Source: Zhenhengia yiwuensis (GTDB taxonomy: Bacteria; Bacillota; Clostridia; Lachnospirales; Cellulosilyticaceae). Taken from it: 24,000 nucleotides of DNA. Positions 506 to 22,901 of the stretch are shown here, in pieces. The stretch covers positions 62,401-86,400 of the forward strand of contig NZ_JACRSY010000017.1 in assembly GCF_014384995.1 (NCBI RefSeq), read 5' to 3'. The number at the start of each line of letters is the position of its first letter. The stretch's first letter is position 1. The notes beneath the pieces were generated by a model. It was not told the DNA's origin and made no database searches. It was given only the letters and a program-made list of their open reading frames with translations. Position numbers and translations under genes: made by a program.

Positions 506-889
506 ATGGCATTCGGTGATAGATTAAAATCACTACGATTAGAAAAGGGTATCTCCCAAAGAGAGCTAGGGGATTTAATTGGTATCTCCGATAGGGTTGT
601 GGGATATTATGAAGCAAATGATAGGTTTCCCAAAGATGAGTTAATATTAAAAAAGATTGCTGATTATTTTAATGTTTCAATGGATGATTTATTAGATAGA
701 GATAATAATGTAAAAAAATTACCTTATGAAAAATTTATGGATACAGTAAAAGTACATTTTATGGGGGCTTCACCTGAAGATCAGGCAGCTATTTTTAATG
801 ATATAACAGAAATATATTTTGAGAGTAAGCAAATTAATAAAGAGAAATTTAATCCTTATAAGAATAAAGATAATAAGAATAACCTCTAA
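506..889 (+). CDS. XRE-family HTH transcriptional regulator, ImmR/CI-like repressor candidate, 127 aa
   Basis: N-terminal HTH_3 pattern LKSLRLEKGISQRELGDLIGISDRVVGYYEANDRFPKDE...IADYFNVSMDDLL. Followed on the same strand by an ImmA-like peptidase. Confidence 0.85.
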   Translation: MAFGDRLKSLRLEKGISQRELGDLIGISDRVVGYYEANDRFPKDELILKKIADYFNVSMDDLLDRDNNVKKLPYEKFMDTVKVHFMGASPEDQAAIFNDITEIYFESKQINKEKFNPYKNKDNKNNL

Positions 890-1056: not shown

Positions 1057-1503
1057 ATGAATATAGCATTACGTGTAAAAAATTTAATTAAACGACATGA
1101 GACACGCGACCCATTTAGAATTGCAAAGGATTTAGGGATTATTATCAAATACAGGCCTTATACAGAAACTAAAGGCTATTTTTTGAAAGTAAATACCAAC
1201 AAGTTTATTATAATCAATTCAAACTTAAGTGATTTAGAAAAACTGTTGGTATGCAGCCACGAGCTTGGACATGCTATTTTACATTCCAATAATAAATATG
1301 CTCTAACCTATGAAAAGGGGCTAGCAATGGTTCAGGATTTTACACTATTTCCTGTTAACTCAATTTATGAAAATCAAGCTAATAAATTTGCTGCCGAGCT
1401 TCTTATGGATTCAGAGTTTTTTGACAGTATATTTTCCAAACATACTGACTTAGATCCCAAGATTTATGAAGCTTTAATGAGATTAAGACATACTAGAATT
1501 TAA
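1057..1503 (+). CDS. ImmA/IrrE-family zinc metallopeptidase, 148 aa
   Basis: HExxH motif in CSHELGHAILH and downstream ENQANKFAAELLM, the typical ImmA/IrrE signature. RBS AGGGGGA. Located downstream of an XRE repressor. Confidence 0.8.
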   Translation: MNIALRVKNLIKRHETRDPFRIAKDLGIIIKYRPYTETKGYFLKVNTNKFIIINSNLSDLEKLLVCSHELGHAILHSNNKYALTYEKGLAMVQDFTLFPVNSIYENQANKFAAELLMDSEFFDSIFSKHTDLDPKIYEALMRLRHTRI

Positions 1504-2622: not shown

Positions 2623-3267
2623 TTATGCACCTATAGTTTCTACCCATAGCATTGCTGAAAATAAACTATGGATTAGTTCATAGAATATTTCTGACTCTGC
2701 TTCTTCTTCAAATAAGTCTGCTCTTCTTATTTTAGAAATAACAATCCAATCCTTTTTGTTATAGTTGATAACTTCCTTACCATAATGTTCTATAAATGAT
2801 TGTTGTCTATTTAATTTTTCTTCTTTATTTCCTTTTAATCCTTTATATAATCTACAAATGGCCCCAGCACCAGCCATATTAGATATATTTTTAAGAAGAT
2901 AAATATACTCCCCATCTTTTATTGCTTGAGATAACTCCAATTGAAAACAAAAGTCATGAAACTTAGTTGAACCTAATGTAATATGTGCATCTCGTAATCG
3001 AGTACTATATCCCCATTCGCCTACATTTAAAAATGCATTATATCCTTTTCCATTATAACTCAACACCTCAAAGCCATCTTCATCATTCAACAAATAAATT
3101 TCTTTCATCCTATATGGTTCATGGTGTTCAGTGTCAACTGTCTCACTTACATTACAAGCGAAAAATTTGAATTTGCCTATTTCTAGTTCAATATTTCTAC
3201 CTAGGGGACAAGTTTCTAATATTTCTACAATTCTATTTGCTTCTTTTTGTTCGATAAGCTCTAGCAT
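2623..3267 (-). CDS. Hypothetical protein, 214 aa (cargo gene 3)
   Basis: RBS AAGGAGA before the ATG at 3267. Preceded by hairpin-repeat copy A. No recognisable catalytic motif. Confidence 0.75.
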   Translation of the reverse strand: MLELIEQKEANRIVEILETCPLGRNIELEIGKFKFFACNVSETVDTEHHEPYRMKEIYLLNDEDGFEVLSYNGKGYNAFLNVGEWGYSTRLRDAHITLGSTKFHDFCFQLELSQAIKDGEYIYLLKNISNMAGAGAICRLYKGLKGNKEEKLNRQQSFIEHYGKEVINYNKKDWIVISKIRRADLFEEEAESEIFYELIHSLFSAMLWVETIGA

Positions 3268-3505: not shown

Positions 3506-4720
3506 TTAGTTAGTTCTTCTAGCTCTCTTAGCTGCTTTATATCTTTCTTCATCATAGAGATTAAAAATAAGATGATAAACTGTCATTAACTCACCATTTT
3601 CAGGCATTATATGTTTACTTACAAAAACCTCCTGATTGTCTATTTCTGTTCTACTAATATATACTGGTGCAAAATCTTCACTCTTATCTTTTAGAATAGT
3701 AAGTTTTTCCATAATATAATCACTTGCGTTCCTATATGGTTTATTACGATTAATAGAAAGGGTTATCCCAAATTTAAAATTAGGATTTAGATACCCCATA
3801 AGCTGATAATATTGGTCTACGAATTTTTCTATGTACTTATTTTCAATAACACAAAAGTCTTCCAATTGACCTTCATACATCCTATAGATATACAAATCTG
3901 TTTCTCCCAGTTTCTTAGCTGAACGCCCCATTGTAAACTCTCGGGCAATTTGCATATTAAACTTTAGATTTAATGGTCTTATTATCGTGTCATGAAATGT
4001 AGCAGTAACTTGAACCTCATCATATTGTTGGAAATCTACTACTCTCTTTTGGAACTGCTTAAGTGCTTCTAAAATTTCTTCTACTATTCCTTGAGCCTCA
4101 TTAATTGGGTGGTAAGCTTTAAAATGTTGTAGGTATATTTCTCTAATATCACACTCCATTAAATCAAAAAAATCTTCTAGATTATCATAATGGTAAACCA
4201 TTTTAGCCAATAGAGGGTTTTCTATATAAAGAAGTGTCATTCTATTAACTTCATCTGGTAGAAAATCTAAATCTTCAAATATTATTCCTACATATTCATT
4301 GAAATCTTCTATTGTATTAATCACATATGCCTTTGTTTGATCCTCACAAGAATTTGATATATTTATGCTATTCCTCAACTCATCACTTAACGGGAAACAT
4401 ATCAACTCTTCATCTTCATCATGAGCTTCAATCCACCACCTTAAAATATTAAATAGTAAAAATTCATAGTTTGGGTTGATGTAATTTCTAACTACTCTCG
4501 AGTTAATAAGCTCATATAATTCATAAATACTATTTCTACACTTATCAGGTTCTCTTTCATATCTATCTCTTGTAAAAAGGAACGCTATTTCAAAATATGG
4601 ATCATCTTGCATAATGTCAATAAGTACTTCTATAACCCCTCTTATATTATCATTAATAAATTCCATTATCTGGTTACCTATTTTTTTGTCCTCTTCATTC
4701 CACAACTGTACATTAATCAT
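3506..4720 (-). CDS. Hypothetical protein, 404 aa, acidic helical N-terminal region plus C-terminal PD-(D/E)xK-like nuclease signature (cargo gene 2)
   Basis: I prefer the internal ATG at 4720 (MINVQLW..) because it has RBS GAGGAGA. The track ORF start at 4774 lies inside the hairpin repeat. C-terminal motifs are GETDLYIY (D), CVIENKY (ExK) and QLMGY (QxxxY). Confidence 0.8.
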   Translation of the reverse strand: MINVQLWNEEDKKIGNQIMEFINDNIRGVIEVLIDIMQDDPYFEIAFLFTRDRYEREPDKCRNSIYELYELINSRVVRNYINPNYEFLLFNILRWWIEAHDEDEELICFPLSDELRNSINISNSCEDQTKAYVINTIEDFNEYVGIIFEDLDFLPDEVNRMTLLYIENPLLAKMVYHYDNLEDFFDLMECDIREIYLQHFKAYHPINEAQGIVEEILEALKQFQKRVVDFQQYDEVQVTATFHDTIIRPLNLKFNMQIAREFTMGRSAKKLGETDLYIYRMYEGQLEDFCVIENKYIEKFVDQYYQLMGYLNPNFKFGITLSINRNKPYRNASDYIMEKLTILKDKSEDFAPVYISRTEIDNQEVFVSKHIMPENGELMTVYHLIFNLYDEERYKAAKRARRTN

Positions 4721-4757
4721 AAGTTTTATCTCCTCGTAAAAATAATTGGATAAACAT

Positions 4758-4836
4758 AAAAAAGCCCAACACAAGCATACCTTCTAACTTCATTATAGTT
4801 ATCTACGTAGTCATGTTGGGCTTCTTGTTATAAATT
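4758..4836 (-). repeat. Cassette-junction hairpin repeat, copy B
   Basis: Outer stem AAGCCCAACA (4762-4771) / TGTTGGGCTT (4814-4823), followed by TTTTTT on the minus strand. Homology with copy C continues 9 nt into the upstream CDS (stop plus N-L codons). Confidence 0.8.
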
Positions 4837-5019
4837 TTTCAATATAAGTAGCATTATAGATAGTACAGTTATACCACCCCATGTCATTGATAAGCTTATT
4901 ATACCTACCTTTTTAAATCTTTTATATGATACTGAATCTTTTCCTGATGTTTCTGCTTCTAACTTTAAAGACGTTAGATACAAAACAGTTCCTATCAATG
5001 CAAAAACTATTATATTCAT
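4828..5019 (-). CDS. Small membrane protein, 63 aa, two predicted TM helices
   Basis: Strong RBS GAGGAGGA. Two hydrophobic stretches (IIVFALIGTVLYL and GGITVLSIMLLIL) are separated by a charged loop. Confidence 0.65.
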   Translation of the reverse strand: MNIIVFALIGTVLYLTSLKLEAETSGKDSVSYKRFKKVGIISLSMTWGGITVLSIMLLILKNL

Positions 5020-5064: not shown

Positions 5065-5250
5065 TTAAGACATCTTTAATCTCATTACTTCATTTTTACT
5101 AAGTCTAACACCCCTGGCCATCTTGGCATGTTCTGGTACCCATTCGCGTATATCGTACTTAAGCTCTTTATCATTCACACTAAGTGCATGGATCAGAGTT
5201 ATGTCTCTATTTAACATTAGATGCGGATTCTTTATTATCTTTTCGCCCAT
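5065..5250 (-). pseudogene. Truncated PC4/YdbC-like gene remnant (61-codon ORF)
   Basis: ..SVNDKELKYDIREWVPEHAKMARGVRLSKNEVMRLK.. is homologous to fragment 3364-3497. Its 5' part overlaps the end of the 487-aa CDS by 44 nt. Compared with copy A, its C-terminus looks shifted by 1 nt (out-of-frame KDVLNGIEI* against copy A's KEVLKGIEI*). Confidence 0.45.
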
Positions 5251-6670
5251 CTATTAGTACTATTGCATTGTTTTCGTCAATCTTTAAATCATGTAAAATC
5301 TTATTCACACGCGCTAACTCTGAATCAGTAAAATATAATATAACTTTAATTGTTTTAGCTGTTCCTCCATTTGCCTTATTGTAAACATCCAGTTGCTTTG
5401 CTAAGTTTTGTTTCAATTTACTATTACTTGCAAGTTTAAATTCTATTAAGGTTTGATCCTTTTTGCCTTGTGACGCTTTAAAATCAACAGGTCCTCTTCC
5501 GTTATTAACCTCAGCATTCATATCAGAATCAGAACTAAACCATGTAAGCTTGTATAGAATTTGAAAATCATGTTCTCGCTTAATAGGCTGTCCATCTATA
5601 TAAAATATTTTATATCCATCCATATCTTCAATAACCCTTTTAAGATACATCACACGCTCTAGTGCTTCCTCAAAGCTATCCTGTCTTACATCATAAAATG
5701 GCGTTTGAGTTGCCATCATTTCTACAAATATCTTATAGTTATTCACCAGAAGCTCATTACAAAAACTAACCTTTTCATTGCTAATATTTGATGCCATTTC
5801 TTTTTCTCGCTCTTTTTCACGAATATAATAGTCAATAATTTCTGGCAACTGCTGTACTAATCTCTGATATACCTCTTGGCGCTCCTTTTTCTTCATGCCT
5901 TTTTTTAATTCCTGTAACAAATAATTATTGATTTGTCCTCGGAGAGCAATATTATCAATTGACTCTACCAAAAGTTCAATTTTACTATACATGTCATTAC
6001 TATTTATAAATGTATCGTCTCTCGTCAACAGATCCTTTGGGGTTAATATAACATAACTATTTTTAAACTTAGGCAGTGTGTAAATTTCACCCTCCCAAAC
6101 CTCAAAATCGTAATTAAATCTTGACTTACTTACATTAAATTGTCCTAACAAGTTTTTATCAATATGTTTTAACGCAAACTCCTGCGTATATCTCAGCAAA
6201 AATGCTTTAATGAGATTAGTTGTAAAGTCACTGATGTTATCTCGTCCTACTCCTGAACCAATCAGACAAAGTTTTTCTAAATGGCTCTCTTCTGTAATGT
6301 TTTCTTCTCCAAATTTCCCAAATAACGATACTAAATTATTATCTAATGATTTTGCAAATTTCATTCCTAGGCCCGAGCCTTTGTTCCCTACCTCCGAAAA
6401 ACCAAGCCAATTTTGCTCCACCTCTTTAAAGGTATACCATGCCCTTAACAATCCTTCCGTAACTATCCCCTTACTTGATTTATCTTTAAGAAATATTAAA
6501 TACCTTATTATTTCTTTATGTAACTGCTTATATTCATTTTTCTTACTGTTAAAAAGTAAAAACGGATCAATAAAGAGTGGCAAATCTGCAACTAAGGAAA
6601 TATTGAAGGCACCGTACTCTTCAAGTGCTTGCTCTCTGACATTAAAAAAATCACAAAAATAAGTATTCAT
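5207..6670 (-). CDS. Hypothetical protein, 487 aa, with C-terminal PD-(D/E)xK (RecB/Cas4-like) nuclease signature (cargo gene 1)
   Basis: RBS AGGAAGGGA directly after hairpin-repeat copy C. C-terminal motifs are REHDFQILY, GRGPVDFKAS (D), LIEFKLAS (ExK) and QLDVY (QxxxY). I did not recognise the N-terminal ~380 aa. Confidence 0.85.
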   Translation of the reverse strand: MNTYFCDFFNVREQALEEYGAFNISLVADLPLFIDPFLLFNSKKNEYKQLHKEIIRYLIFLKDKSSKGIVTEGLLRAWYTFKEVEQNWLGFSEVGNKGSGLGMKFAKSLDNNLVSLFGKFGEENITEESHLEKLCLIGSGVGRDNISDFTTNLIKAFLLRYTQEFALKHIDKNLLGQFNVSKSRFNYDFEVWEGEIYTLPKFKNSYVILTPKDLLTRDDTFINSNDMYSKIELLVESIDNIALRGQINNYLLQELKKGMKKKERQEVYQRLVQQLPEIIDYYIREKEREKEMASNISNEKVSFCNELLVNNYKIFVEMMATQTPFYDVRQDSFEEALERVMYLKRVIEDMDGYKIFYIDGQPIKREHDFQILYKLTWFSSDSDMNAEVNNGRGPVDFKASQGKKDQTLIEFKLASNSKLKQNLAKQLDVYNKANGGTAKTIKVILYFTDSELARVNKILHDLKIDENNAIVLIDGRKDNKESASNVK

Positions 6671-6684
6671 AAATATCCCTTCCT

Positions 6685-6764
6685 AAAATAAGCCCAGCAC
6701 AACCACACCTTCAAACTTCATTCTAGTTATCTACGTGGTCATGTTGGGCTTCTTGTTATAAATT
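6685..6764 (-). repeat. Cassette-junction hairpin repeat, copy C
   Basis: Outer stem AAGCCCAGCA (6690-6699) / TGTTGGGCTT (6742-6751), extendable to ~17 bp imperfect (..ACCAC/GTGGT..). The repeat overlaps the last 3 codons of the DUF45 gene. Confidence 0.8.
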
Positions 6765-7469
6765 CATATTAATTCCGTTATTTTTTAACCATTCTTTTCG
6801 CACTTCATAGTCTGGCATAATACTTCCTAGTAAATCCCAGAAGGCTTTTGAATGATCTTTATGATACATGTGGCAGAGCTCATGGACAATGATGTAGTCT
6901 AGTGCATGTGCTTTTGCCATGACACAGCGCCAGTTGAATAAGAGCTCATTGTTAATTGTGCAGCTTCCCCAGCGCTTTTTCTGTTCTTTGATTTTCACTG
7001 TCGTAGGCTTTTTGTCAAAGAAGGCTTGGTAATATTTGAGCCGTTCTTCAATTTGTTCTTTGGTTTTCGCTCTGTACCAATCTTCCATAGTTGCTTTTAT
7101 GAGGAGTTCATCTTTTACTGGTACAGTGACATAGAATTTGCCTCTATAAAGCTTTGTGGATGCTTTTCCTACTGTTTCATCGACTACGATTTGCATGGCA
7201 TAGTTACGCCCTAAGTATACAAAGGCTTCACCATTAACGAATTCTCTAGTAATCTTTTGAGCCTGCATATTTCTAAATGTAAACATCTTTTGTATAAGCC
7301 AACTAGCTTTTTGTTTAACCTTCTGTTTAATGACTTCTTCGGTTGTTCCTATAGGTGCTGTTACTACAATTTTACTTGGTGGCTCTATAGCCATTTCCAT
7401 TGTTTTTCTTTCAGAGTAGGTCACTTCAAAAGTTAAGGCTGTTGTCCCATATTGTAGTGTCAATTCCAT
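6756..7469 (-). CDS. DUF45/YgjP-like (M48/WLM-type) zinc metallohydrolase, 237 aa
   Basis: HExxH in IIVHELCHMYHKDH near the C-terminus. The size and the position just downstream of hsdR are typical of YgjP-like proteins linked to Type I R-M operons. Confidence 0.85.
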   Translation of the reverse strand: MELTLQYGTTALTFEVTYSERKTMEMAIEPPSKIVVTAPIGTTEEVIKQKVKQKASWLIQKMFTFRNMQAQKITREFVNGEAFVYLGRNYAMQIVVDETVGKASTKLYRGKFYVTVPVKDELLIKATMEDWYRAKTKEQIEERLKYYQAFFDKKPTTVKIKEQKKRWGSCTINNELLFNWRCVMAKAHALDYIIVHELCHMYHKDHSKAFWDLLGSIMPDYEVRKEWLKNNGINMNL

Positions 7470-7479
7470 CTTATCGCCT

Positions 7480-10400
7480 CTATTCTAATTCTTTGAAGTG
7501 GGTTTTAGCCAGGTTAAGAAGTGGCTGAATCATCTGGTTAATAATCGGTAACTTCTTGATTGTCTTCATATGATTTTTAATAAGCATCATCTTGATTGCT
7601 CTTTCAATGTCATTTGCTTTTGTAGGATTTGTTACCCAATCAATAAGGTAATGATCTTTAACTACTTGTTTGACATCTTTAGCAATACTCTTTGATAACT
7701 CAATGATATCATTGGAGATATAAACTTCTCCCGAATCCTTAACAACCCCTTCTACACTCTCTTCTTCTAGCAAATACTTTTTCACTACTTCAAAGAATGC
7801 AAACTCTTTTTCATCCAGTCCTAGTGTCTCTGAATGTGACTTTGTACCTTCCATGACTTCTTTTTCAATGAATTCTTCTAACTGTTTCTTACGTTTTACC
7901 CAGTCATGTTCTGTATCATTTAAGAGTTTTTGAAGTTTCTCTAGCAAACTGGTATAAAACACAGGGTTATCATCCATTCTTACTGCAATAGCATGTTTTA
8001 CAGCATGTTCCATAGCTGATGCTTGAGATTCATCTGAATGCATGGTATTAATCTTCATTTTAAAGTCATCTTCAAAGAGAGTAATTGGTGCAATCCACTG
8101 TTGCACACCTAAAGACTTCAGATGTTTTTCAATAATCTCCTTAACCTTTTCTCCACAATCACTAATATCTAAGTTCTGTTCTGGTGTATACTTTGCTTTT
8201 GCAGCCACACGAATATAACTTAGCCATTTCACATCATTGAGAATATCTGCCCCTACATGTGCTGGTAGAAGTGCTTCAACTATACCTTGAAAGGTTTTAT
8301 AACCTATTTCAAACTCAGCTCGCTTATCTTCTGGCTCAATCACTTTGATAAGTTCATCTAAGTTGTTAGGATCTACACCTCTAAACATATTCATGACTGC
8401 TTCACGATAAGAAAGCATTTCTTTGTACAGGTCATCTATAGATTGCATTGGTTTTCCAAGTTCTTCTTTGTCAAAGATGGCTAAAGCTTCTTCCAGATAG
8501 TTGGAAATACCGTAGTAATCTACGACATAGCCACATTGCTTGATGATTTTGTTCTTCTCTATGGTCCCATTTTCTAATTGCTTTTGGATTTCTTGCGTAT
8601 TGGTACGGTTTACCCTTGCTATAGCTTGTAGTAAGTTATGTTCTTTGAGTGGTCTATCTAAATACATGACTTGTTCAATAGGTGCATCGAATCCTGTAAG
8701 TAGCATATCTTTTACAATTAAAAAACATAACTTATCTTTGTCTATTGGCTGTTTGAAATGTTTAATGATTTCTTCTTGTTCAGCCTTTGTGGTAAAGTGT
8801 TCCTTCAAGTGTGGAGGATCATTGTTATCTCCTGAGAAGATGACTCTTACTTCTAGCTCTTCACCAATAATGTCTTTCATATGTTTCTTAAGAGCTCTTT
8901 CATAACGTACACAAGCTTCTCTACTAATACAAACTATTTGAGCCTTAAAGCCATTAGGCATAATGTTATCTCTATAGTGTACTAACATATCTTTAGCAAT
9001 ATCTTCGATGCGGACTTCTGCTTCTGCAATAGCTTTGTTGGTTGCATACTTCTGTTTAATGGCTTCTTTTTCTTCATCTGTTCTATCACTGAACATCTGA
9101 TCAAAGAGTTCATCTAAGCTTTTACCTTCTAGTTGAAGGGCTGGCTTTCTACCTTCATATACAATTTTAACTGTTGCCCCATCTTGTACAGCTTCTTCAA
9201 TACCATATTTATCGATGTAGCCACCAAATGTTCTAGGTGTAGACTTATCTTCTTTATCAATAGGTGTTCCTGTAAAACCTACAAATACTGCATTAGGTAG
9301 TGCGACTCTCATATTGCCTGCTGTATCTTTATATTGGCTACGGTGTGCTTCATCTGTTAGAACAATGACATTCGGTGTAGTCGTTAATACCTCATAAGGT
9401 TTCACAAACTTCTTCTTAACCTTCTTGCCATTTTCAATGACTTCACGTTCTTCTGTCTCACTTTCAAACTTCTGAATAGTCGTCATGATAATTTGAGCTT
9501 TAGCAGCTGATAAAAGCTCTTTCATCTTCACAATTTTATCAGCACGAACTGGCTCTGTTATTTTACAGAGGTTCTTGTAGAAGGTTGCAAAGATTTGTTT
9601 ATCGAGGTCAATACGGTCTGTTACAACCACTATGGTTGAATCCATAAGCCCTTCCATACGTCTAAGCTTTCTTGCTAGGAATACCATTGTCAGTGATTTA
9701 CCACTTCCTTGTGTATGCCATACGACCCCACCACGTCCAATAGAGTTTTTCCCTTTTACCATACGGTCTATTGCCTTATTAACAGCTCTAAACTGCTGGT
9801 AGCGACAGACCTTCTTAATAATACGACCATCATCAGGCTCAAAAAGTAGGAAGTTACGCATCAAGTCAATCAGGTTATGCTTTTCTAGCATGCCTTGAAT
9901 AAAGATATTTTGAGGACTGTTCTCTACATCTTCAATATCTTTCTTTTTGAATGGATAAGGATCTTTCCACTCTACATAGTGATTGTATTGTGAGCTAATA
10001 GTCCCGACATAAGCATGGTATTTATTTAAAATACCTGTAAAGAAGTTGGTATAAAATAGATGTGGTGCACCTTCTCCAAGTGCTTCATCTCGAATATTCA
10101 TATAACGGCAAAGCTGTTCATAACCTTGCTTCTTCCCTACACTGACCTTATTTTGTTTTTCTAAGAAAGGTGATTTACACTCTAAGACTACCACGGGTAT
10201 ACCATTAACAAATACCACAATATCCGGGAAGATACTTTTACCACTCAGTGTCTGAACTTCAAATTGACGCACGACTAGGAAATCATTGTTCAGTGGTTCA
10301 TCCCAGTCAATAAAATGTACTGTATGTTTTTTCTTTAAGCCACTACCATCTAAGTCTTGTTCTACTGTATAAGTAAGGTTCACCATGTCATCATAAAGCT

Positions 10401-10671
10401 TCTCATTAATCTCAAGTAGGCTACTACCCAAATGGTCTGCTGTTTGCAGGTAACGGATTGTTCTCTGTAAATTTCCCTGGCTTATCCAAGGGTTTAAACG
10501 TCGTAAAGCCACTTCTAAATGCTTACTAAGTACCACTTCTCTTAAGGATTCACGTTCCCCTTGTTCAGGTCTTAGCTCTTTACCATGAATATAGGTATAT
10601 CCTAGTATCTCTTTCATATAGTCTACAGCTGGTGCTTCAACTAAGGTTTCTTCATTTCCCAAATAGGACAT
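7480..10671 (-). CDS. hsdR: Type I restriction endonuclease subunit R
   Basis: N-terminal nuclease motif PDIVVFVNGIPVVVLECK, helicase Walker A HTQGSGKSLTM, DEAH box VLTDEAHRSQ, and ~1060 aa length. I prefer the start at 10671 (MSYLGNEE) with RBS GGGGGTGA over the upstream ATG at 10689. Confidence 0.95.
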   Translation of the reverse strand: MSYLGNEETLVEAPAVDYMKEILGYTYIHGKELRPEQGERESLREVVLSKHLEVALRRLNPWISQGNLQRTIRYLQTADHLGSSLLEINEKLYDDMVNLTYTVEQDLDGSGLKKKHTVHFIDWDEPLNNDFLVVRQFEVQTLSGKSIFPDIVVFVNGIPVVVLECKSPFLEKQNKVSVGKKQGYEQLCRYMNIRDEALGEGAPHLFYTNFFTGILNKYHAYVGTISSQYNHYVEWKDPYPFKKKDIEDVENSPQNIFIQGMLEKHNLIDLMRNFLLFEPDDGRIIKKVCRYQQFRAVNKAIDRMVKGKNSIGRGGVVWHTQGSGKSLTMVFLARKLRRMEGLMDSTIVVVTDRIDLDKQIFATFYKNLCKITEPVRADKIVKMKELLSAAKAQIIMTTIQKFESETEEREVIENGKKVKKKFVKPYEVLTTTPNVIVLTDEAHRSQYKDTAGNMRVALPNAVFVGFTGTPIDKEDKSTPRTFGGYIDKYGIEEAVQDGATVKIVYEGRKPALQLEGKSLDELFDQMFSDRTDEEKEAIKQKYATNKAIAEAEVRIEDIAKDMLVHYRDNIMPNGFKAQIVCISREACVRYERALKKHMKDIIGEELEVRVIFSGDNNDPPHLKEHFTTKAEQEEIIKHFKQPIDKDKLCFLIVKDMLLTGFDAPIEQVMYLDRPLKEHNLLQAIARVNRTNTQEIQKQLENGTIEKNKIIKQCGYVVDYYGISNYLEEALAIFDKEELGKPMQSIDDLYKEMLSYREAVMNMFRGVDPNNLDELIKVIEPEDKRAEFEIGYKTFQGIVEALLPAHVGADILNDVKWLSYIRVAAKAKYTPEQNLDISDCGEKVKEIIEKHLKSLGVQQWIAPITLFEDDFKMKINTMHSDESQASAMEHAVKHAIAVRMDDNPVFYTSLLEKLQKLLNDTEHDWVKRKKQLEEFIEKEVMEGTKSHSETLGLDEKEFAFFEVVKKYLLEEESVEGVVKDSGEVYISNDIIELSKSIAKDVKQVVKDHYLIDWVTNPTKANDIERAIKMMLIKNHMKTIKKLPIINQMIQPLLNLAKTHFKELE

Positions 10672-10694
10672 TCTTTCACCCCCATTCAAACTGA

Positions 10695-11936
10695 TTATTT
10701 ATCTGTGGTAACTCTTATCTTTCCTGTTAGAAGTTGTTGCATAAGGCCTTTTTTTAATTCTGTTATTATTTCTTTTTTCTTATAATAACTCTGTAATTTT
10801 TCATCTATCGTATATAAAACATTTACAATTTTTTCTTGTTCTTCTCTAGTTGGTATAAATACTTTAAAGTTTTTAATAATTTCTTGACTAATGTTAGGCT
10901 GTGCTCCCCCAGCGCCTAGCTCAATTAACTTGTCTTTATTAAACTCTAAAGTATAGTACAGATATTCATAATTAACTTTTTCCTCATTACAAATAATACT
11001 ACAACATGCTTGGTTAGTAGTAACTTCTGTTTTATTAATACTTAATTTACCTATTGTTGCACCGTACATAGCTATAATTACTGCATTTACTGGAACTATT
11101 TTTGCAGATGAATTCCTTACGGCCTCTTGTGTTATTTTTTCTTCTGTATCATAAATATATTTATTTGATAGCTCTCCTGTTTTTAGCCATGGAATATTAC
11201 CATTTAAATAATACTCTTTGTTTTTTCTACTAGGTGTTCCCCCACTAGTAGTATTAGCTACTTCTCTAATCAGCTTCACTTCCCACTCTTTAGGAATAAT
11301 ACCTATTTCTGTTTCTTTGAACTCTGTATTCCCTATACCTTTTGTGAGAAGTTGTTGCATCAGACCTTTTTTAAGCTCCTTTGTTTTTTCAATGAGTTGG
11401 TCTACATTGTCAATTTGTTCATCTACAGTTGATAGGATATCAGCTATTTTTTGCTGTTCTTGGAGTGGTGGGTAATATAATGGTAGGTTTTTGAAAACAT
11501 TGTAACTAATTTGCTTCCCATCTCTTATCCCAATAACAGAACTACTTAAACTATCAATAAACTTCTTACTTTTGAATAAATACTTATAATAATTAGAATG
11601 TATATTTATTTTGTTATTCAATATCGTATACGCTGGACTTACTATTCCCCTTATTCCTGAGTACTCTAATCCCCCCTGAAAAGAACGAAGGCTTATAATA
11701 AAGTTACCTTTTTCAACTAATTTATAGCTTTCAATACTTTTATCTGAAGTTTTAATATCTATACCACACTCATCTCTATACATTGTTCCTCTATCTTGAG
11801 TTACTGCAAGTATAGGTTCTTTGGGGTAACCTTTTAATGCCACATTTTCAAACACTTCTCCTGCTTTCTTTATATCCCACTCATTAGGAATAAGTCCTAA
11901 TTCTGTATTTTTGAAGCCATCCTTTACAGTCTTCAT
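10695..11936 (-). CDS. hsdS: Type I R-M specificity subunit S with two target-recognition domains
   Basis: Two TRDs, each followed by a conserved spacer repeat LKKGLMQQLLT (central and C-terminal), plus central PPLQEQQKIADILS. I prefer the start at 11936 (MKTVKDG) with RBS AGGAGGA. The upstream ATG at 11963 lies inside the hsdM 3' end. Confidence 0.9.
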   Translation of the reverse strand: MKTVKDGFKNTELGLIPNEWDIKKAGEVFENVALKGYPKEPILAVTQDRGTMYRDECGIDIKTSDKSIESYKLVEKGNFIISLRSFQGGLEYSGIRGIVSPAYTILNNKINIHSNYYKYLFKSKKFIDSLSSSVIGIRDGKQISYNVFKNLPLYYPPLQEQQKIADILSTVDEQIDNVDQLIEKTKELKKGLMQQLLTKGIGNTEFKETEIGIIPKEWEVKLIREVANTTSGGTPSRKNKEYYLNGNIPWLKTGELSNKYIYDTEEKITQEAVRNSSAKIVPVNAVIIAMYGATIGKLSINKTEVTTNQACCSIICNEEKVNYEYLYYTLEFNKDKLIELGAGGAQPNISQEIIKNFKVFIPTREEQEKIVNVLYTIDEKLQSYYKKKEIITELKKGLMQQLLTGKIRVTTDK

Positions 11937-11949
11937 ACTTATTCCTCCT

Positions 11950-13467
11950 TTATATAATGTCAAATCCTAATTCCTTAAGGTAGCCATTTAGTCTTTGTTG
12001 TGTATTTTTTTCTCTTTCACTAAGTTGCTTAATTTCTTTAATTACATCATTAATATTTACTTGCTCTTCTTCCTCACTTGTATCAACATAACGCGATATA
12101 TTAAGGTTGTACTCGTTATCTTCTAGCTGTGAAATCGATACTACTTTAGAATATTTATCTATATCTTCATATTTTTCAAAGGTGGATATTATCTTAGCTA
12201 TATCTTCTTCTCGTAATACATTTTTAGTTTTCTCTTTACTAAACTCATTGCTAGCATCTATGAATAAGACTTTTTCTTTACGTTCTATAGGTTTATTCTT
12301 ATTCAGTACGATAATAGCTGCTGGAATGCTTGTGCCATAAAAGACATTTTGTGGAATACCAATAATAGCTTCTACTAGGTCATCTTTTAAGAATCCTGTA
12401 CGGATCTTTGCCTCAGCACCACCTCTAAAGAGTACACCATGAGGTACTACTGTAGCCATTTTACCTTTTGCATTTAGGCTTGTTACCATATGAGATACGA
12501 ATGCCAGATCACCATAGCTTTTTGGTGGAATACCATAAGGGAAGCGGTGAAAGGCATCACTTGCAGCTTCTTCAGCTCCCCAGTTTTTAAGTGAGAATGG
12601 TGGGTTTGCTAATACCTTATCAAAAGCTTTTAGTACACCACCTTCTGTATGCATTGGTGTACGGATCGTATCCCCTTTTTGGATATCCGCACCTTTAGCA
12701 CCATGGAATAGCATATTCATCTTACAAATAGCCCAAGTTGATAGGTTAATCTCTTGACCAAATAGTGAAATATTCTTGTGATTGCCACCATGTTTTTTGA
12801 TGTATTCTAAACTTTGAATAAGCATACCACCAGAACCACATGTTGGGTCATAGATACGGTCGCCCTCTACTGGTTTTAAGATACCTACCATTGTTTTAAC
12901 TACTTCTGTTGGTGTATAGAATTCTCCACCTTTAGCTCCGCCATCATCAGCAAACTTTTTGATTAAATATTGGTAAGCATCACCTAACATATCTTCTGAT
13001 TCTAGGTTACTATTTGCTAGTTTCATGCTGCTAAATAGGATTAACATTTGTGATAGCTTTTTATCCGATACACGTTCCTTGTCATTGTAGTTAGTTGTTG
13101 TAAGTACACCAATAAGCTCACTATTTCTAGGCTCGTCCTCTAGTGCTTTAAACGCCTTGTCTAGTGCTGGTCCAATGTTTAGTGATAAATCCTTTAGCTT
13201 AGCCCATCTAGCCGCTTCTGGTACATAGAAGGTCTCATATAAAGAGGCATCATTAAGTAACTCTGTGATCGTTTCATCATCAAGCCCTTGCTCTTTAAAT
13301 TCGGCTTCGTGCTTTGCTTTTTCTTCATCAAATTCATCATTAAGACGCTTTAAGAAAAGCATACCAAAGATATAGTCCTTGTATTGAGCTGCATTAAGCT
13401 CACCTCTTAATATATCTGCACATTCCCATAGCTTTGACTCTAGTTCTTGTAGTGTTAGTAGTACCAT
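11950..13467 (-). CDS. hsdM: Type I R-M N6-adenine DNA methyltransferase subunit M
   Basis: HsdM N-terminal pattern [29 protein letters not shown] motif [11 protein letters not shown], catalytic motif IV NPPF. RBS TTGGAGG. A possible extended -10 (TGATAAAAT) lies at 13512..13504. Confidence 0.95.
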
Positions 13468-14977: not shown

Positions 14978-15844
14978 TTAATATCTTATTTTAAAATCCA
15001 TTTCTTCTACATTTTCTTTTAACCTATTTATATCATATTCCATAGAATTTATATCTCTTCCAATAGAACTTATTTCTCGTTCAATAGAATCTATGTCATT
15101 TTGAAGTATATAATTATGTTCTTCTTGATCTGATATCTTACCTCTTAGTCTACTGATATCTGATTCTACATAATATATTCTATCTTCGAACTCAGTTTTC
15201 ATTTCATCTATCTGTCTTTCTAAATAATCATAATTATCTTGTATGATTAACAATTCACGTGTAACCCTATCTATCTCATTGCCATCATTATCTACATATA
15301 GTTTTTCTGCTTTATTTCCACACTCTCTACATGTAGGTATTTTCTCACTTTTTAACAGCTCAAAAATATTGTTTTTACAGCTGCATACCTCTTTTAGTGA
15401 AACATAGTCATCACATTTAATATCTCGAATATCACTTCCACACTCTAGGCACTTAACTTTAGGTGTTTTATACGTACTATCTATAACAAAAAATCTACTT
15501 TCGCACTGTTCACATTTTACTGTATTAAGTAAGTGTTCTCTTTCCTCTTCTGTAATTTCATTTCCTTTATCATCTATGGCTATCCATTCTATTTCTTGAT
15601 TGCATTTACCACATTTTATTTTCTTAATAGTTATCTTGTCTAAATTATCAATTTTACTTATTTTAAATGATCCATCTAAACAATTACAATGTTTTTTCAG
15701 ACCTCTATACTCTTTAGGTTTAACCGTGATCTTGACCTCATTACATTTTTGGCAAACAAATTTTATAAATCCTTTTTCTTCTTCTTTTAAAAACTTAACC
15801 TCATGACATACATCACAACTAAAAGTAGTTACCATCTTATTCAT
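14978..15844 (-). CDS. Multi-zinc-ribbon plus coiled-coil protein, 288 aa
   Basis: Four Cys pairs-of-pairs: CxxC-16-CxxC, CxC-22-CxxC, CxxC-17-CxxC, CxC-15-CxxC. This forms an internal two-fold duplication, each half ending in D(D/N)(K/D)GNEI..E.LL. The C-terminal ~90 aa is a heptad-like charged repeat (DISRLRGKISD..DIDSIEREISSIGRDINSMEYDINRLKENVEEM). Confidence 0.8.
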   Translation of the reverse strand: MNKMVTTFSCDVCHEVKFLKEEEKGFIKFVCQKCNEVKITVKPKEYRGLKKHCNCLDGSFKISKIDNLDKITIKKIKCGKCNQEIEWIAIDDKGNEITEEEREHLLNTVKCEQCESRFFVIDSTYKTPKVKCLECGSDIRDIKCDDYVSLKEVCSCKNNIFELLKSEKIPTCRECGNKAEKLYVDNDGNEIDRVTRELLIIQDNYDYLERQIDEMKTEFEDRIYYVESDISRLRGKISDQEEHNYILQNDIDSIEREISSIGRDINSMEYDINRLKENVEEMDFKIRY

Positions 15845-16306: not shown

Positions 16307-17290
16307 TTATTCATGCCTTCTTTCTGCATCCTTTGCACTATAATGAGTATCTTTTCTTTTTTTCTCTCCATTCACTACTTCAATATTACTCCTGCGTTTC
16401 ATCTCTTCTTGCACCTGTTCAAATACCTCAATAGGAATGATAGGTTCATGTGCCTCTTCCATAATAAATTGGTCTTGCTGCCCACGGTTGACTTTTTGTC
16501 TATTATTTGGAAACCCTGTAGTATATGTTTTACCTACCCGTACATTACCCATGTATTTTTCGTTCGTAAGCATGGTTTGAATGGTGCGTTTAGACCATCT
16601 CTCTTTGCCTGTAGGCGAATTGATATTCTTATCAGCTAACTCTTCCATAATCATATCTACACTATACCCACTTAGGTATAACTCAAAGATTTGCCTTACT
16701 ACAATCGCTTGCTCTTCATAAATCATTAGCTCTCCATCTTGGTTTTTTTTATATCCAAAGCATTTGCGTGTATAAAGCTTTGATCTTCCAGATTTAAATC
16801 CACTTTTAAATCCCCATTTGATCGCTTCACTTAATCCCTCACTTTCTGCTTGTGCGAATGCAGCGTGCACTGACATTATGAGCTCTGTTTCAGCATCACT
16901 TGTACTAATATTTTCCTGCTCAAAGCGTACCTCAACACCTAACCATTTTAGTTTAGTAACTGTCTCTAGTAAATCAACAGTATTTCTGCTAAATCGACTA
17001 ATTGACTTGACCAAAATGATATCAAATAGATTCTCATAACTATCAAGCATCATCTTATGAAATCCTGGACGAAAAGTATTCCTTCCGGTATCTTGATCCT
17101 CATAGACTCCATACAAAGTCCACTGAGAGTTGCATTTAACGACTTGCTCCAGACCATACTTCTGGGCTTTTAAACTTTCTTCTTGTATATCGCTTAGTGT
17201 ACTTACACGGCAGTAGATTGCCACTCTTTTATCATTTCTTACTGTGGGTGGCCTAACCTCTACATTACGTCTTCTATTGTTTTCCATCAT
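16307..17290 (-). CDS. Serine recombinase (resolvase catalytic domain plus recombinase domain), 327 aa, lacking the zinc-ribbon/coiled-coil domain of large serine recombinases
   Basis: Catalytic-serine motif VAIYCRVSTLSD, SISRFSRN motif, and recombinase-domain patterns (YTRKCFGYKK, SPTGKERWSKRTIQTMLTNEKYMG, HEPIIPIEVFEQVQ). The ORF stops at ..THYSAKDAERRHE*, about where the Zn-ribbon domain normally starts. Confidence 0.9.
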   Translation of the reverse strand: MMENNRRRNVEVRPPTVRNDKRVAIYCRVSTLSDIQEESLKAQKYGLEQVVKCNSQWTLYGVYEDQDTGRNTFRPGFHKMMLDSYENLFDIILVKSISRFSRNTVDLLETVTKLKWLGVEVRFEQENISTSDAETELIMSVHAAFAQAESEGLSEAIKWGFKSGFKSGRSKLYTRKCFGYKKNQDGELMIYEEQAIVVRQIFELYLSGYSVDMIMEELADKNINSPTGKERWSKRTIQTMLTNEKYMGNVRVGKTYTTGFPNNRQKVNRGQQDQFIMEEAHEPIIPIEVFEQVQEEMKRRSNIEVVNGEKKRKDTHYSAKDAERRHE

Positions 17291-17413: not shown

Positions 17414-17917
17414 TTAGGCTACTTAACTAAGTAATAAGTAGTCTAAAACTGCATTTCCGTTTCAACTGCTCTTTTTCCCATTGTATGAATAACATATTTC
17501 ACCTTTTATTTTGTATTCTTAAGTTTATTTATAATTATATTAATGCATAAAAACGGACATCAAACTCGTTCATCACAATGTATCACATCACATACCTGAC
17601 ACCTTTAAAGCCTTTTATTTACAAGCTTTTCCCTAGCTTTCACTTGTGTTACAGTTCTGATATTCCCCCTTCGCTAAGTAGCTTTATAATAGGCTGCCAT
17701 AAGTTCCTTTTATCTCAATTCTAAGTTTTAATACATCTATATAAACTTTTACGCAAATATCCCTGATTTCGTTTATTAGTGTACCCCCCTATCCATGTAG
17801 GAACATATTTTTACCCAATTCCTCCCCAAAAACACATACAAAAAGGCTAGAGCAAATTGCTCTAGCCCTTGGTATTCCTTAGTTTTCTTTAACTAGGTAT
17901 GCGATTGTCTCAACGTG
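17414..17917. repeat. Direct repeat copy 2: rlmD 3' end plus downstream region, contiguous with the intact gene
   Basis: Hairpin TTAGGCTACTTA/TAAGTAGTCTAA (17414-17447) and block 17746-17917 match copy 1. About 300 nt between the two blocks (17448-17745) has no counterpart in the ~70-nt spacer of copy 1. Confidence 0.8.
17845..17867 (-). terminator. Rho-independent terminator of rlmD
   Basis: GGCTAGAGC-AAATT-GCTCTAGCC perfect stem, followed on the minus strand by TTTTTG. A slightly damaged duplicate lies at 14860-14882. Confidence 0.7.
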
Positions 17918-19246
17918 ATGTGTATGAGGGAACATATCTACGCAGCATACTTTCTCTACTTTATAACCAGATTGTTCGAATACTGGAAGGTCTCTTGCAA
18001 GGCTTGTTGGTTTACATGAAATGTAGAGAAGTTCTTTAGCATCAAAACCAATAATTTTATCTATTGCTTTTGGATGAATTCCTTCACGTGGTGGATCAAG
18101 TACGATAAGTTCTGGTTTCACGTGGAAGTTTTCTACTTCCTTAAGAACATCTCCTGCTACAAAGTGGCAGTTTGTAAGATCATTAAGTTTAGCATTTTCT
18201 TTAGCTTTTTCTACTGCTTCTTCTACAATTTCAATACCGTATACTTCTTTTGCTTTGGTTGCCATAATTTGTGCAATGGTACCTGTACCTGAATAAAGGT
18301 CAAATACTACTTTACTTGTGATATCTTGTGGCATATCAAGTGCTGTCTTATAAAGAAGTTCTGCACCTTTTGTATTAGTTTGAAAGAATGAGTAAGGAGA
18401 AATATTGAATTGAAGTCCTAAAATTGTTTCTGTAAAGGCATCTTTACCATAAAGTACTCTCGTAGAGTCTGGTTTAACAGCATCTGCAAGTGTATCAGAA
18501 TACGTATGAAGGATCCCTGCAATTTTGCCTTTTGTTCCTAAGTCTACAAGGTAGTTAGCAAGCTCTGTAAAGTCAAAGTCTCTTTGTGTCGTTGTAACGA
18601 TATTAATCAGAAGGTCTCCTGTTGTTTCAGAACGTCTTACAATAAGGTAGCGTAAGAAGCCTTCATGGATTTTCTTTTTATAGAATGATAGATTGAAAGA
18701 CTGTGCATAGCGTAATACAAATCTTAAAATCATATTAAAGTCTTCATCTACAATTTTGCAGCCATCTACTGTAATAATATCAAATGTACTATTTTTGCGG
18801 TGCATACCTAGTGTCATTGGGCCGTCTTTGCAGGCATCTCCAAAGGAGAATTCCATTTTGTTACGGTAAGCCCATTCAGATGGACTACCTAAAATCCCCA
18901 TATCTTCATATCCTGTAACACCAGCATTTTGAAGAAGTGTTTGAACTTGTTCATGTTTATGTTCAAGCTGATTTTCATAGCTTAAATGCTGCATAGCACA
19001 GCCACCACATAGACCAAAATATTCACATGAAGGTTTTACAAAATGAGCAGGGTTTTCAAGATGCTCTAGAGCACGTCCCTCCCATGTCCCTTTTCTTTTA
19101 CGTTGTAATCTTACGCGTACTTTCTGACCTGGAAATGTATCAGGTACTATAACAGGAATACGCTCTTCTTCTATATACATAATTCCTTTGTTAGGAAATT
19201 TTACTTTTTCAATTAGACCGTCGATAATTTCATTCTTTTTAGCCAT
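17879..19246 (-). CDS. rlmD: 23S rRNA (uracil-C5)-methyltransferase, RumA/RlmD (TrmA) family, 455 aa
   Basis: N-terminal TRAM-like region, Fe-S cysteines CEYFGLCGGCAMQH, SAM motif DLYSGTGTI, DPPREG, and catalytic-Cys motif YISCKP. Confidence 0.9.
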   Translation of the reverse strand: MAKKNEIIDGLIEKVKFPNKGIMYIEEERIPVIVPDTFPGQKVRVRLQRKRKGTWEGRALEHLENPAHFVKPSCEYFGLCGGCAMQHLSYENQLEHKHEQVQTLLQNAGVTGYEDMGILGSPSEWAYRNKMEFSFGDACKDGPMTLGMHRKNSTFDIITVDGCKIVDEDFNMILRFVLRYAQSFNLSFYKKKIHEGFLRYLIVRRSETTGDLLINIVTTTQRDFDFTELANYLVDLGTKGKIAGILHTYSDTLADAVKPDSTRVLYGKDAFTETILGLQFNISPYSFFQTNTKGAELLYKTALDMPQDITSKVVFDLYSGTGTIAQIMATKAKEVYGIEIVEEAVEKAKENAKLNDLTNCHFVAGDVLKEVENFHVKPELIVLDPPREGIHPKAIDKIIGFDAKELLYISCKPTSLARDLPVFEQSGYKVEKVCCVDMFPHTHHVETIAYLVKEN

Positions 19247-20666: not shown

Positions 20667-21371
20667 CTAGAAGGTAAAAATCCATGCTTTTGGTATATAC
20701 TGTTCTATAATATGTTGATTTAAATTAAACCAGCTCATACATTTATCTAGTATAATCGCATCACTTGAAACAACACCAGGTAATTGCTCTAATACCCTAT
20801 CTACCTCACTCAGTACGGATACTGTGATTTGGGTAGGATAAGACTTGGCAAGCTCCATAATAAGCACTTTTAATCGCCCTGAATTAGATACAGGCTGGTC
20901 TAAATAAATCTTTGCTTCTTTTACGTGTAGGTTTCTGAGAGTCTGTAATATCAGTTTAATAGCTTGTTCTGTCTGAGTAATAATGCCATATGTCCCCCGT
21001 AAGCCTGCTAAATCTCTTAGTGTACCATCCATTCCTTTTATGAGGAGGGACCGAGATAAAGCGACTTCTAATGTAATGATTGTATTAAAGCCATCTATAT
21101 GCAGACAAGATGGAAGCAGCTTAGATGAAAGTTCCTTTTCTTTTCGTTTTTGTAGCTGCCAAGATGCCGAAGTCATTCTAACAAGTGCTAGACGCTGACG
21201 CTCAGATAATAAATAATGATTTCCTATAAAAGTCGAGGCCGATTTAATAGGATAATTTCTATTCACGAGATAATATAACTCTTCACTTGCCTGTTCTAAT
21301 GTATCTACCCATTGATTCCCAAATTCTATTTCATCTTTCACTACAAAACCACGTCTTACATTTTTACTCAT
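20667..21371 (-). CDS. Hypothetical protein, 234 aa, DUF434-like N-terminus with a possible PIN/NYN-like C-terminal domain
   Basis: ELYYLVNRNYPIKSASTFIGNHYLLSERQRLALVR resembles my memory of the DUF434 signature. IDGFNTIITLE..DGTLRDLAG resembles the associated C-terminal domain. Not verified. Confidence 0.6.
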   Translation of the reverse strand: MSKNVRRGFVVKDEIEFGNQWVDTLEQASEELYYLVNRNYPIKSASTFIGNHYLLSERQRLALVRMTSASWQLQKRKEKELSSKLLPSCLHIDGFNTIITLEVALSRSLLIKGMDGTLRDLAGLRGTYGIITQTEQAIKLILQTLRNLHVKEAKIYLDQPVSNSGRLKVLIMELAKSYPTQITVSVLSEVDRVLEQLPGVVSSDAIILDKCMSWFNLNQHIIEQYIPKAWIFTF

Positions 21372-22454: not shown

Positions 22455-22901
22455 TTATTTCTCCATAAGATAATTTGTCAATAAAACGCCTTTTCTCTCT
22501 ACATGCTGTTCCTTAATAACTTTATATCCTCTTTTTTCAAAGAAAGATTTTGCCGTGATAGAAGCGTATGTGGTAATTGTGACTTTATTAGCTGCATGTT
22601 CCAATTCATTACAAATTGCAGTTGCAATCCCTCTGTTCTGGTAATCTTTATGAACATATAGTCGATCTAAATATCCCATCTTATCTATATCTCCAAAGCC
22701 GACTATAATATTATCTTCAACTGCAACAACTGTAAAATGTTCTAATAAGGACTTGTTCCATTCTTTTAAATTCACACTACCTGTTGCCCATGCATTCAAT
22801 TGTTCCTCTGTATAATCTTTTGCATTAACTGAATGAACAGTATCATAAAATAATTCTGTTAAATATTTGCAATCTGTTTCTTCATACTCTCTGATAATCA
22901 T
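22455..22901 (-). CDS. GNAT-family N-acetyltransferase, 148 aa
   Basis: Acetyl-CoA motif A: LYVHKDYQNRGIATAICNELE. I prefer the start at 22901 (MIIREYEE) with RBS AAGGAGG over 22919. Confidence 0.85.
   Translation of the reverse strand: MIIREYEETDCKYLTELFYDTVHSVNAKDYTEEQLNAWATGSVNLKEWNKSLLEHFTVVAVEDNIIVGFGDIDKMGYLDRLYVHKDYQNRGIATAICNELEHAANKVTITTYASITAKSFFEKRGYKVIKEQHVERKGVLLTNYLMEK

Follow-up and report, generated by a model that had tools for sequence, protein, structure and literature searches.

The closest described counterpart of the gene analysed here is DS-20, a single-gene defence system of Escherichia coli whose protein, WP_032291790.1 (working id PDX1), was reported in the DefensePredictor study (Science 2026, PMC13092281). 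Cloned alone in MG1655, it is recorded there as defensive (defensive = TRUE, replicated = TRUE; PMC13092281). Its authors annotated a C-terminal PDDEXK domain alone: their HHpred search assigned residues 333-474 to PDDEXK (DpnII-MboI REase, that is, restriction endonuclease; prob 0.97) and left the N-terminus without annotation, and the nearest known defence protein that they give is LmuA_effector_PDDEXK, at 17% coverage (PMC13092281). Here, we compare with DS-20 a gene of Zhenhengia yiwuensis, which occupies positions 5207-6670 on the minus strand of a 24,000-nucleotide stretch of DNA (NCBI RefSeq assembly GCF_014384995.1, contig NZ_JACRSY010000017.1, positions 62,401 to 86,400; hereafter the window, to which the coordinates refer unless otherwise stated). 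Like DS-20, it is a single gene and encodes a protein of 487 amino acid residues (aa; 487 vs 487). The settings differ, in that DS-20 comes from an E. coli host and a P4 satellite hotspot, whereas the Zhenhengia gene sits behind a Type I restriction-modification (R-M) operon.

An earlier note on this DNA, made from the sequence alone, had described an open reading frame (ORF) of 487 aa at this place, without naming its strand, directly behind such an operon. We found both features: the ORF is present on the minus strand with an ATG start, and the preceding hsdM, hsdS, hsdR and YgjP/DUF45 genes, on the same strand, have strong Pfam matches. The translated N-terminus reads MNTYFCDFFNVREQALEEYGAFNISLVADLPLFIDPFLLF, and the protein is 100% identical to the NCBI entry 'hypothetical protein [Zhenhengia yiwuensis]'. 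It is divided into an N-terminal module of residues 1-235 (DUF8370; 5966..6670), a middle helical region of residues 236-340 with long helices at 241-322 (5651..5965), and a C-terminal domain of residues 341-487 with a predicted PD-(D/E)xK nuclease fold (DUF8371; 5210..5650), all on the minus strand. The first ~230 residues are shared with the A model of PDC-M36 (Payne et al. 2024, bioRxiv 10.1101/2024.01.29.577857). PDC-M36 itself is a three-gene cassette (FAM_01399>>FAM_00303>>FAM_00303), about half of whose A model is matched by the 487-aa protein; the PDC models were built on genes that lie inside BREX, DISARM or Type I R-M systems. As to the partner genes of this cassette, the genes downstream in the window gave no PADLOC match, and no such partner is recurrent in the 80 related loci described below.

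Other systems resemble the protein in design. The comparison with Shedu that had been drawn from the sequence stands with respect to architecture, namely an N-terminal regulatory part followed by a C-terminal PD-(D/E)xK domain, but DUF4263/Shedu itself was unmatched: neither the 487-aa protein nor 34 family members gave a Pfam or PADLOC match to it. In Shedu, moreover, the constant part is the nuclease, joined to variable N-termini, whereas the present family has a constant N-terminal module and a varying output. Card1, Can2, Cdn1 and Lamassu LmuA (PDDEXK) also fuse a sensor or adaptor domain to a PD-(D/E)xK nuclease, and they are among the nearest structural matches of our C-terminal domain, all of them below significance; the LmuA model matched two family members weakly. 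The CARF/SAVED effectors and Lamassu are known to use the same interchangeable repertoire of nuclease, TIR, SIR2 and protease outputs. By contrast with these systems, the N-terminal module has no CARF or SAVED match, and no cyclase, CRISPR locus or LmuB/SMC partner is linked to the gene. PrrC and RloC share with our gene the attachment of a nuclease gene to a Type I R-M operon. PrrC, however, is an ABC-ATPase anticodon nuclease that is almost confined to Type I loci, while the 487-aa family has no ATPase, carries a PD-(D/E)xK domain and is R-M-linked in ~17% of its loci.

Assignment to the DS-20 family

In precomputed Pfam tags, the identical protein and all 120 listed homologues carry PF28123 (DUF8370) followed by PF28130 (DUF8371), and the newest RefSeq annotation uses the wording 'DUF8370 family protein'. 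Our own searches of Pfam, NCBIfam and PDB sequences, with the 487-aa protein and with a profile of 34 sequences, gave no usable match. PADLOC matched residues 5-232 to the candidate PDC-M36A (E 1.2e-19; profile positions 8-226 of 457), and the N-terminal ~230 residues did so in 34 of 34 family members tested, with E down to 2.9e-24. BLASTP aligned E. coli WP_032291790.1 with the Zhenhengia protein over 487/487 aa, at 53% identity and with 5 gap positions, and the E. coli protein keeps all the motifs of the N-terminal module and of the nuclease. The 487-aa protein is thus assigned, with very little doubt on our part, to the DS-20 family of defence genes. The earlier note had left the ~380 residues before the tail without a family and had seen no named system in the protein. 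Profile searches of the kind that it proposed place both halves and the N-terminus in the families named above, and since the family had already been described, the claim of novelty falls. A search of the main texts of the literature for PDC-M36, DUF8370/8371 and the accessions returned nothing, and the connection with DS-20 was reached only via supplementary tables.

The family is large and widespread, with >6,800 homologous clusters (90% identity). The 120 listed homologues are 485-532 aa long (mostly 485-500) and 51-86% identical to the Zhenhengia protein. Genome matches come from Bacillota, Proteobacteria, Acidobacteria, Chloroflexi, Planctomycetes, Bacteroidota, Nitrospirota, Patescibacteria and a Methanobrevibacter metagenome-assembled genome (MAG), and ~50% identity is kept from Clostridia to Proteobacteria, Patescibacteria and the archaeal MAG. 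Family genes were also found on 19 plasmid records, every one of them annotated 'hypothetical'. In 50,697 phage genomes, tblastn detected no copy, although PHROGs does hold a full-length family (phrog_30194).

What is known experimentally comes from E. coli. In the protection values tabulated for DS-20, log10 protection amounts to 1.70 against Bas3, 1.54 against SECphi27, 1.52 against T3, 1.48 against Bas1, 1.34 against Bas19, 1.26 against T7 and 1.15 against Bas11, and to <=1.0 against Bas67, Candy and lambda, whose rows are flagged 'Y' (PMC13092281). The expectation of an anti-phage protein encoded by one gene, regulatory in its front part and ending in a nuclease, therefore agrees with an orthologue that is experimentally defensive and with a tail that is modelled as PD-(D/E)xK; the Zhenhengia protein itself would, judging from its sequence, share the anti-phage activity. 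The family gene is present in 17 of 5,426 complete E. coli genomes. There, at tRNA-Leu, it is the only gene carried in the int-psu slot of a P4-like satellite (loci L098/L099, 10338-20645 in their own numbering), where the gene order is int, the DUF8370 gene, psu, delta, sid, ..., primase. This slot is the P4 antiviral hotspot (Rousset et al. 2022), and the E. coli family proteins found in it are listed as 'hypothetical' in Table S1A of that paper. We also considered the P4-hotspot systems of NAR 2026 (Crouga, Bandua, Aernus, Toga, Reve and Hailong), none of which fits the 487-aa protein.

The C-terminal domain

The ordered motifs that had been read in the tail of the protein are all there: EHDF at 366-369, GRGPVDF at 391-397, LIEFK at 408-412 and QLDVY at 426-430. 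Across 34 aligned homologues drawn from many phyla, E366, D368, G391, R392, G393, D396, E410, K412, Q426 and Y430 are invariant, and because this invariance extends over so many phyla, the nuclease motifs are not due to chance. AlphaFold models of the full-length protein (predicted local distance difference test score (pLDDT) 81, predicted template modelling score (pTM) 0.82) and of residues 326-487 alone (pLDDT 82.4, pTM 0.81) both have the canonical order alpha1, beta1, beta2, beta3, alpha2, beta4 (alpha-beta-beta-beta-alpha-beta). In the numbering of the isolated domain, the elements are a1 41-52, b1 58-61, b2 72-75, b3 81-88, a2 94-108 and b4 113-121, and D71, E85 and K87 correspond to D396, E410 and K412 of the whole protein. 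In the models, alpha1 bears E366 and D368, D396 stands where beta2 starts, beta3 contains E410-x-K412, and Q426 and Y430 of the QxxxY motif lie on alpha2 (helix 419-433), after the ExK strand. These predicted structures support the C-terminal domain as a canonical PD-(D/E)xK core.

Foldseek with the isolated domain gave SfsA as the best match (E 8.6e-3, prob 0.94) and none below 1e-3; with the full-length model, nothing below E 1e-3 was found in the PDB and BFVD. The top matches of the isolated domain mostly have the restriction-endonuclease fold (SfsA, VC1899, Card1, Cdn1, Can2, Nt.BspD6I, Kpn2I, a CdiA-CT toxin, XisH, BstEII, LmuA, EcoO109I, NucS, Mus81/XPF, TnsA and Avs4). The narrower description of the tail as 'RecB/Cas4-like' could not be upheld, the QxxxY motif alone being in keeping with it: PDDEXK_1, Cas4 and RecB gave no match in Pfam, PADLOC or NCBIfam (E<=0.1), and the 50 Foldseek matches listed contain no entry for RecB, AddB or Cas4. 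Cas4 and AddB carry a four-cysteine Fe-S cluster; residues 341-487 contain no cysteine. The PADLOC Cas4 model was matched by one of the 34 family members, with E 0.093.

After the last nuclease strand, the family has an invariant C-terminal tail, ...(D)NK(P)SAS.A (K480, S482 and S484; residues 480-487, 5210-5233 on the minus strand). This tail is absent from the effector-fused relatives described in the next section, and it could be autoinhibitory or a degron.

A conserved N-terminal module with exchanged effectors

The model of the N-terminal module (residues 1-235) is mostly helical, with one long beta-hairpin at 175-202. Its invariant residues are D29, D35, H51, E83, Q86, G98xGLG102, H130, E132, K133, G142, D144, S147 and D148, and two glycine-rich loops, G95-G102 and G140-D148, stand at the N-termini of helices and may bind phosphates. 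With residues 1-235 as a profile, we obtained, from 1.84 billion cluster representatives, 2,044 clusters at E <= 1e-3, 264 of them at E <= 1e-30.

Among the best 150 of the 2,044 clusters, 16 proteins are 600-860 aa long. In 15 of these 16 long relatives a further domain is appended at the C-terminus: TIR in eight, CHAT in three, caspase in two, and SIR2 and a PNP_UDP_1 phosphorylase in one each. The PADLOC models for TIR and caspase back two of the appended domains. The activities associated with these added domains, NAD+ or nucleotide depletion and proteolysis, are typical outputs of abortive-type immunity. A caspase-fused relative of 844 aa (P0140) ends in Effector-associated domain 7 (EAD7; residues 769-841). 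Effector-associated domains connect effectors with other components of conflict systems, and the EAD7 of P0140 is a hint that larger systems incorporate some of the relatives.

DUF8371 persists in 14 of the 16 long relatives, at 23-35% identity, with its active site lost. The loop EVNNGRGPVD, which includes D396, is deleted in them; E387, G391, G393, D396 and S400 are retained in 0/16, R392, Q426 and Y430 in 1/16 each, and E410 in 4/16. Taken over all canonically invariant positions, the long relatives keep 89% in the N-terminal module, 80% in the middle region and 32% in the C-terminal domain. Such selective decay of the nuclease site is as expected if the nuclease is the working effector of the 487-aa proteins and is no longer needed after the attachment of a different one. 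We thus conclude that the nuclease matters in the canonical form, since its site decays specifically when another effector is present.

In a further 15 relatives, 438-481 aa long, the nuclease site is degraded and no effector is appended (P0144, P0148, P0169, P0178, P0181, P0186, P0193, P0197, P0199, P0209, P0210, P0213, P0219, P0232 and P0242). They keep D29, D35, E83, D144 and D148 in 15/15, H51, H130 and E132 in 13/15 each, and K133 in 10/15.

Genomic neighbourhoods

We collected 80 genomic loci of the family, clustered all their ORFs and counted Type I R-M genes within 10 kb. No partner gene is recurrent or universal across the 80 loci. The most recurrent neighbour families are hsdM (13 loci), hsdR (13) and hsdS (11), with Type I genes in 14 of the 80 loci overall, followed by serine recombinases (10/80), helix-turn-helix (HTH) proteins (9) and integrases (4/80). 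Embedding in a Type I locus is accordingly not obligate, the E. coli member being isolated in the P4 hotspot. In about eight loci (L043, L045, L056, L078, L081, L082, L007 and L020) the family gene and the last hsd gene share a strand, and the former either adjoins the latter directly or overlaps its stop codon. These loci come from at least seven phyla and differ in gene order, and hence the R-M linkage arose repeatedly. As a rough general figure, a Type I system would be expected in ~1% of random 20-kb windows, and against this expectation the 17% linkage is a large excess.

Other defence genes occur around family members as well. A homologue of 86% identity sits behind a Type IIS R-M system; others lie behind a Type III R-M system, beside Gabija and Thoeris, beside Lamassu LmuB_C, DUF4238 and an RT-PRTase pair, or near an AAA_15/AAA_21 ATPase. 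Distant relatives are found between a Gabija-like pair and McrBC, or adjoining SIR2, GIY-YIG and AAA proteins. A PADLOC scan of 140 immediate neighbours returned five HsdS and six PbeA-like proteins, in a table dominated by redundant HsdS models.

Proposed function and alternative explanations

We consider it likely that the protein is a stand-alone, horizontally mobile immune protein, with the DUF8370 module and the helical part as sensor or switch and the nuclease as effector. The DUF8370 module and the helical middle would form the constant control part, which senses infection or acts as a switch and holds the C-terminal nuclease inactive in uninfected cells. Upon infection, the nuclease would be released and cut DNA, giving broad but modest protection, probably via a slowed or aborted infection. 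In the sister proteins, the same control part would drive TIR, SIR2, PNP-nucleosidase, caspase or CHAT domains. The adjacency to R-M genes would reflect cargo of a defence island or hotspot, maybe as a second layer behind restriction, and not an obligatory R-M subunit. The assignment of roles to the two ends of the protein, the trigger and the abortive-type outcome are what we infer from the patterns described above.

Several observations weigh against this interpretation. The protection tabulated for DS-20 is weak (10-50-fold) and comes from a screen; DS-20 is absent from the main-text discussion of its source, and catalytic mutants, DNA-cleavage assays and a trigger are not reported there (PMC13092281). 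Neither half of the 487-aa protein has a structural match at E<1e-3. The 15 effector-less relatives may mean that the N-terminal module has an activity of its own or acts with partners in trans, so that 'sensor only' would be too simple a description. Finally, the module has >50 residues that are invariant across phyla, which is unusual for a reader of fast-evolving phage proteins. From this unusually high conservation we draw the inference that the module detects an invariant cue.

These considerations lead to a more general proposal, which we advance tentatively and rate at somewhat less than an even chance: DUF8370 would be a previously unrecognised, NTPase-free immune control module that detects an invariant cue and drives interchangeable effectors of death or dormancy. 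It would possibly possess a catalytic or ligand site of its own, formed from D29, D35, H51, E83, H130, E132, K133, D144 and D148. Its outputs would comprise a PD-(D/E)xK nuclease, TIR, SIR2, PNP, caspase and CHAT domains, and partners in trans as in PDC-M36, with DS-20 as merely the commonest of many. Candidates for such a cue would include a feature of nucleic acids, a signal derived from nucleotides or a host process that infection disturbs, in contrast to phage proteins, which vary.

Other explanations of the protein divide according to which part is taken to do the work. The N-terminal module might itself be an enzyme or a nucleotide-dependent switch and thus the true engine, with the C-terminal domains, be they an active nuclease or a degraded scaffold bearing add-ons, as accessory outputs or oligomerisation modules, an explanation partly compatible with the sensor-effector arrangement proposed above. 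The near-absolute conservation of its acidic, histidine and lysine residues, even in the 15 effector-less relatives and in all the fusions, would fit this, as would the two glycine-rich loops; we nevertheless think it unlikely, as neither fold nor profile searches linked the module to an enzyme family and the decay of the nuclease site specifically in effector-bearing relatives shows that the nuclease matters canonically. If the nuclease is instead a direct, Type IV-like restriction endonuclease, whose N-terminal part binds a feature of foreign DNA (for example a modified base or a DNA structure) and whose nuclease cuts that DNA, neither suicide nor activation would be involved. It would then be a solitary nuclease without a methyltransferase, adjoining R-M genes; mrr and mcrBC likewise sit in immigration-control regions with R-M genes. 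The same glycine-rich loops could bind phosphates, and the protection, as tabulated, covers unrelated phage groups. The swapped outputs (TIR, SIR2, PNP, caspase and CHAT), however, do not act on DNA and argue for an output at the level of the cell; known modified-base readers gave no match; and the tabulated 10-50-fold protection includes T3 and T7, which to our knowledge carry no hypermodified DNA. Direct restriction is in our judgement very unlikely.

The genomic setting raises two more possibilities. As a PrrC-like guard of restriction, the protein would be silenced by the adjoining R-M complex, or keep watch over it, until a phage anti-restriction factor disables restriction, whereupon the nuclease would fire. 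Type I subunits are indeed the commonest neighbours, with the gene abutting or overlapping the last hsd gene in the eight or so loci mentioned, close relatives lie behind Type IIS and Type III R-M systems, the window leaves no space for a separate promoter after the R-M operon, and the PADLOC PDC models were sourced by just such embedding in BREX, DISARM and Type I R-M. Yet Type I genes are missing within 10 kb in 66 of the 80 loci, the E. coli gene stands alone in the P4 hotspot and protects when cloned alone in MG1655, a hairpin resembling a terminator separates operon and gene in the window, and the adjacent R-M types vary, which makes a specific protein-protein interaction unlikely; we hold the guard model to be quite improbable. 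A housekeeping nuclease of mobile elements, serving recombination, replication or addiction and having no immune role, might be thought of in view of the serine recombinases in 10/80 loci, the integrases in 4/80, the recombinase and HTH/ImmA pair of the island in the window and the occurrence of the gene on plasmids. The published anti-phage phenotype of the E. coli orthologue largely refutes this explanation, and the immune-type effector swaps, the lack of a linked recombinase in most loci and the absence of the gene from the phage genomes searched by tblastn also oppose it, leaving it scarcely credible.

The Zhenhengia protein is an orthologue of an already validated defence gene, and its discovery is not new. 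As far as we found, the DS-20 paper takes up neither the pattern of effector swaps nor the R-M linkage. DUF8370, as a putative control module, is among the most conserved and widespread in single-gene defence and is coupled to at least six types of effector. Being one gene that is active in E. coli, DS-20 offers a tractable model of how a non-NTPase sensor controls a nuclease, TIR, SIR2 or caspase domain, and the repeated attachment to R-M operons raises the hypothesis of layered defence or of the sensing of anti-restriction.

Local organisation of the island

The operon upstream of the DS-20-family gene consists of hsdM (11950-13467), hsdS (10695-11963), hsdR (7480-10689) and the gene for a YgjP-like/DUF45 metallopeptidase (6756-7469), all on the minus strand and identified by Pfam. 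The spacer between the YgjP-like gene and the DS-20-family gene is 85 nt long and holds a strong hairpin with a U-tract (-25.9 kcal/mol, z -4.0), which leaves ~15 nt between the hairpin and the ribosome-binding site AGGAAGGGA and ATG of the DS-20-family gene. Since there is no space for a promoter of its own, co-transcription with the R-M operon is plausible, and the gene is probably expressed by read-through past the attenuating hairpin.

The hairpin is part of a 79-nt direct repeat. Copy 1 (6686..6764, minus strand) overlaps the last YgjP codons, and copy 2 (4758..4836, minus strand), 91% identical to it, follows a 63-aa ORF; on the minus strand, both copies overlap the stop codon of the preceding ORF and fold as a strong hairpin with a U-tract, resembling a terminator or attenuator. 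The pair flanks a unit of 1,928 bp that consists of the DS-20-family gene and the 63-aa ORF (4828..5019, minus strand), whose product has two hydrophobic segments (MNIIVFALIGTVLYLTS...WGGITVLSIMLLILKNL) and ends in LLILKNL. Because the repeats bracket the gene and the small ORF, the DS-20-family gene resembles a discrete cassette behind the R-M operon, and the repeat pair suggests either the insertion of a cassette or a duplicated terminator or attenuator. Around the closest homologue, whose upstream gene encodes 240 aa and is not YgjP, the 79-nt repeat was sought and not found. Small ORFs adjoin some other homologues on varying sides, for example E. coli WP_071837912 and those of loci L004 (9877-10050) and L089 (7251-7430), in the numbering of those loci.

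On one side, the island has a gene pair for an XRE-type HTH protein (506-889, plus strand) and an ImmA/IrrE protein (Peptidase_M78; 1057-1503, plus strand), and on the other a serine recombinase (16307-17290, minus strand). With the HTH/ImmA pair and the recombinase at its sides, the whole R-M/DS-20 region looks like an integrative mobile island.

Downstream of the repeat-bracketed unit lies a gene for a 422-aa protein (3506-4774, minus strand), whose start is probably the ATG at 4720 (MINVQ..., 404 aa). The protein has a C-terminal D..ExK..QxxxY-like motif of its own (GETDLYIY...VIENKY...QYYQLMGY) and no match in Pfam, NCBIfam or PADLOC. Its family, with 230 hits, is a small orphan one whose named members come from Lachnospiraceae/Clostridia, and the protein may be another uncharacterised nuclease of the same island. 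It was ruled out as a paralogue or partner of the DS-20-family protein, with an hhalign probability of 2% and an occurrence in 0/80 related loci. A 214-aa gene farther downstream (2623-3267, minus strand) was ruled out as a partner in the same way, not being present in the 80 related loci; its product has no match to any family.

Also in the island, a 288-aa protein encoded at 14978-15844 (minus strand) combines repeated CxxC pairs of zinc-ribbon-like type with a coiled coil at its C-terminus. Outside it, at 20667-21371 (minus strand), a protein with strong Pfam matches to DUF434 and DUF5616 is encoded among apparently housekeeping genes, which include one for a tRNA U5-methyltransferase-like protein (17879-19246) and one for a GNAT protein (22455-22919).

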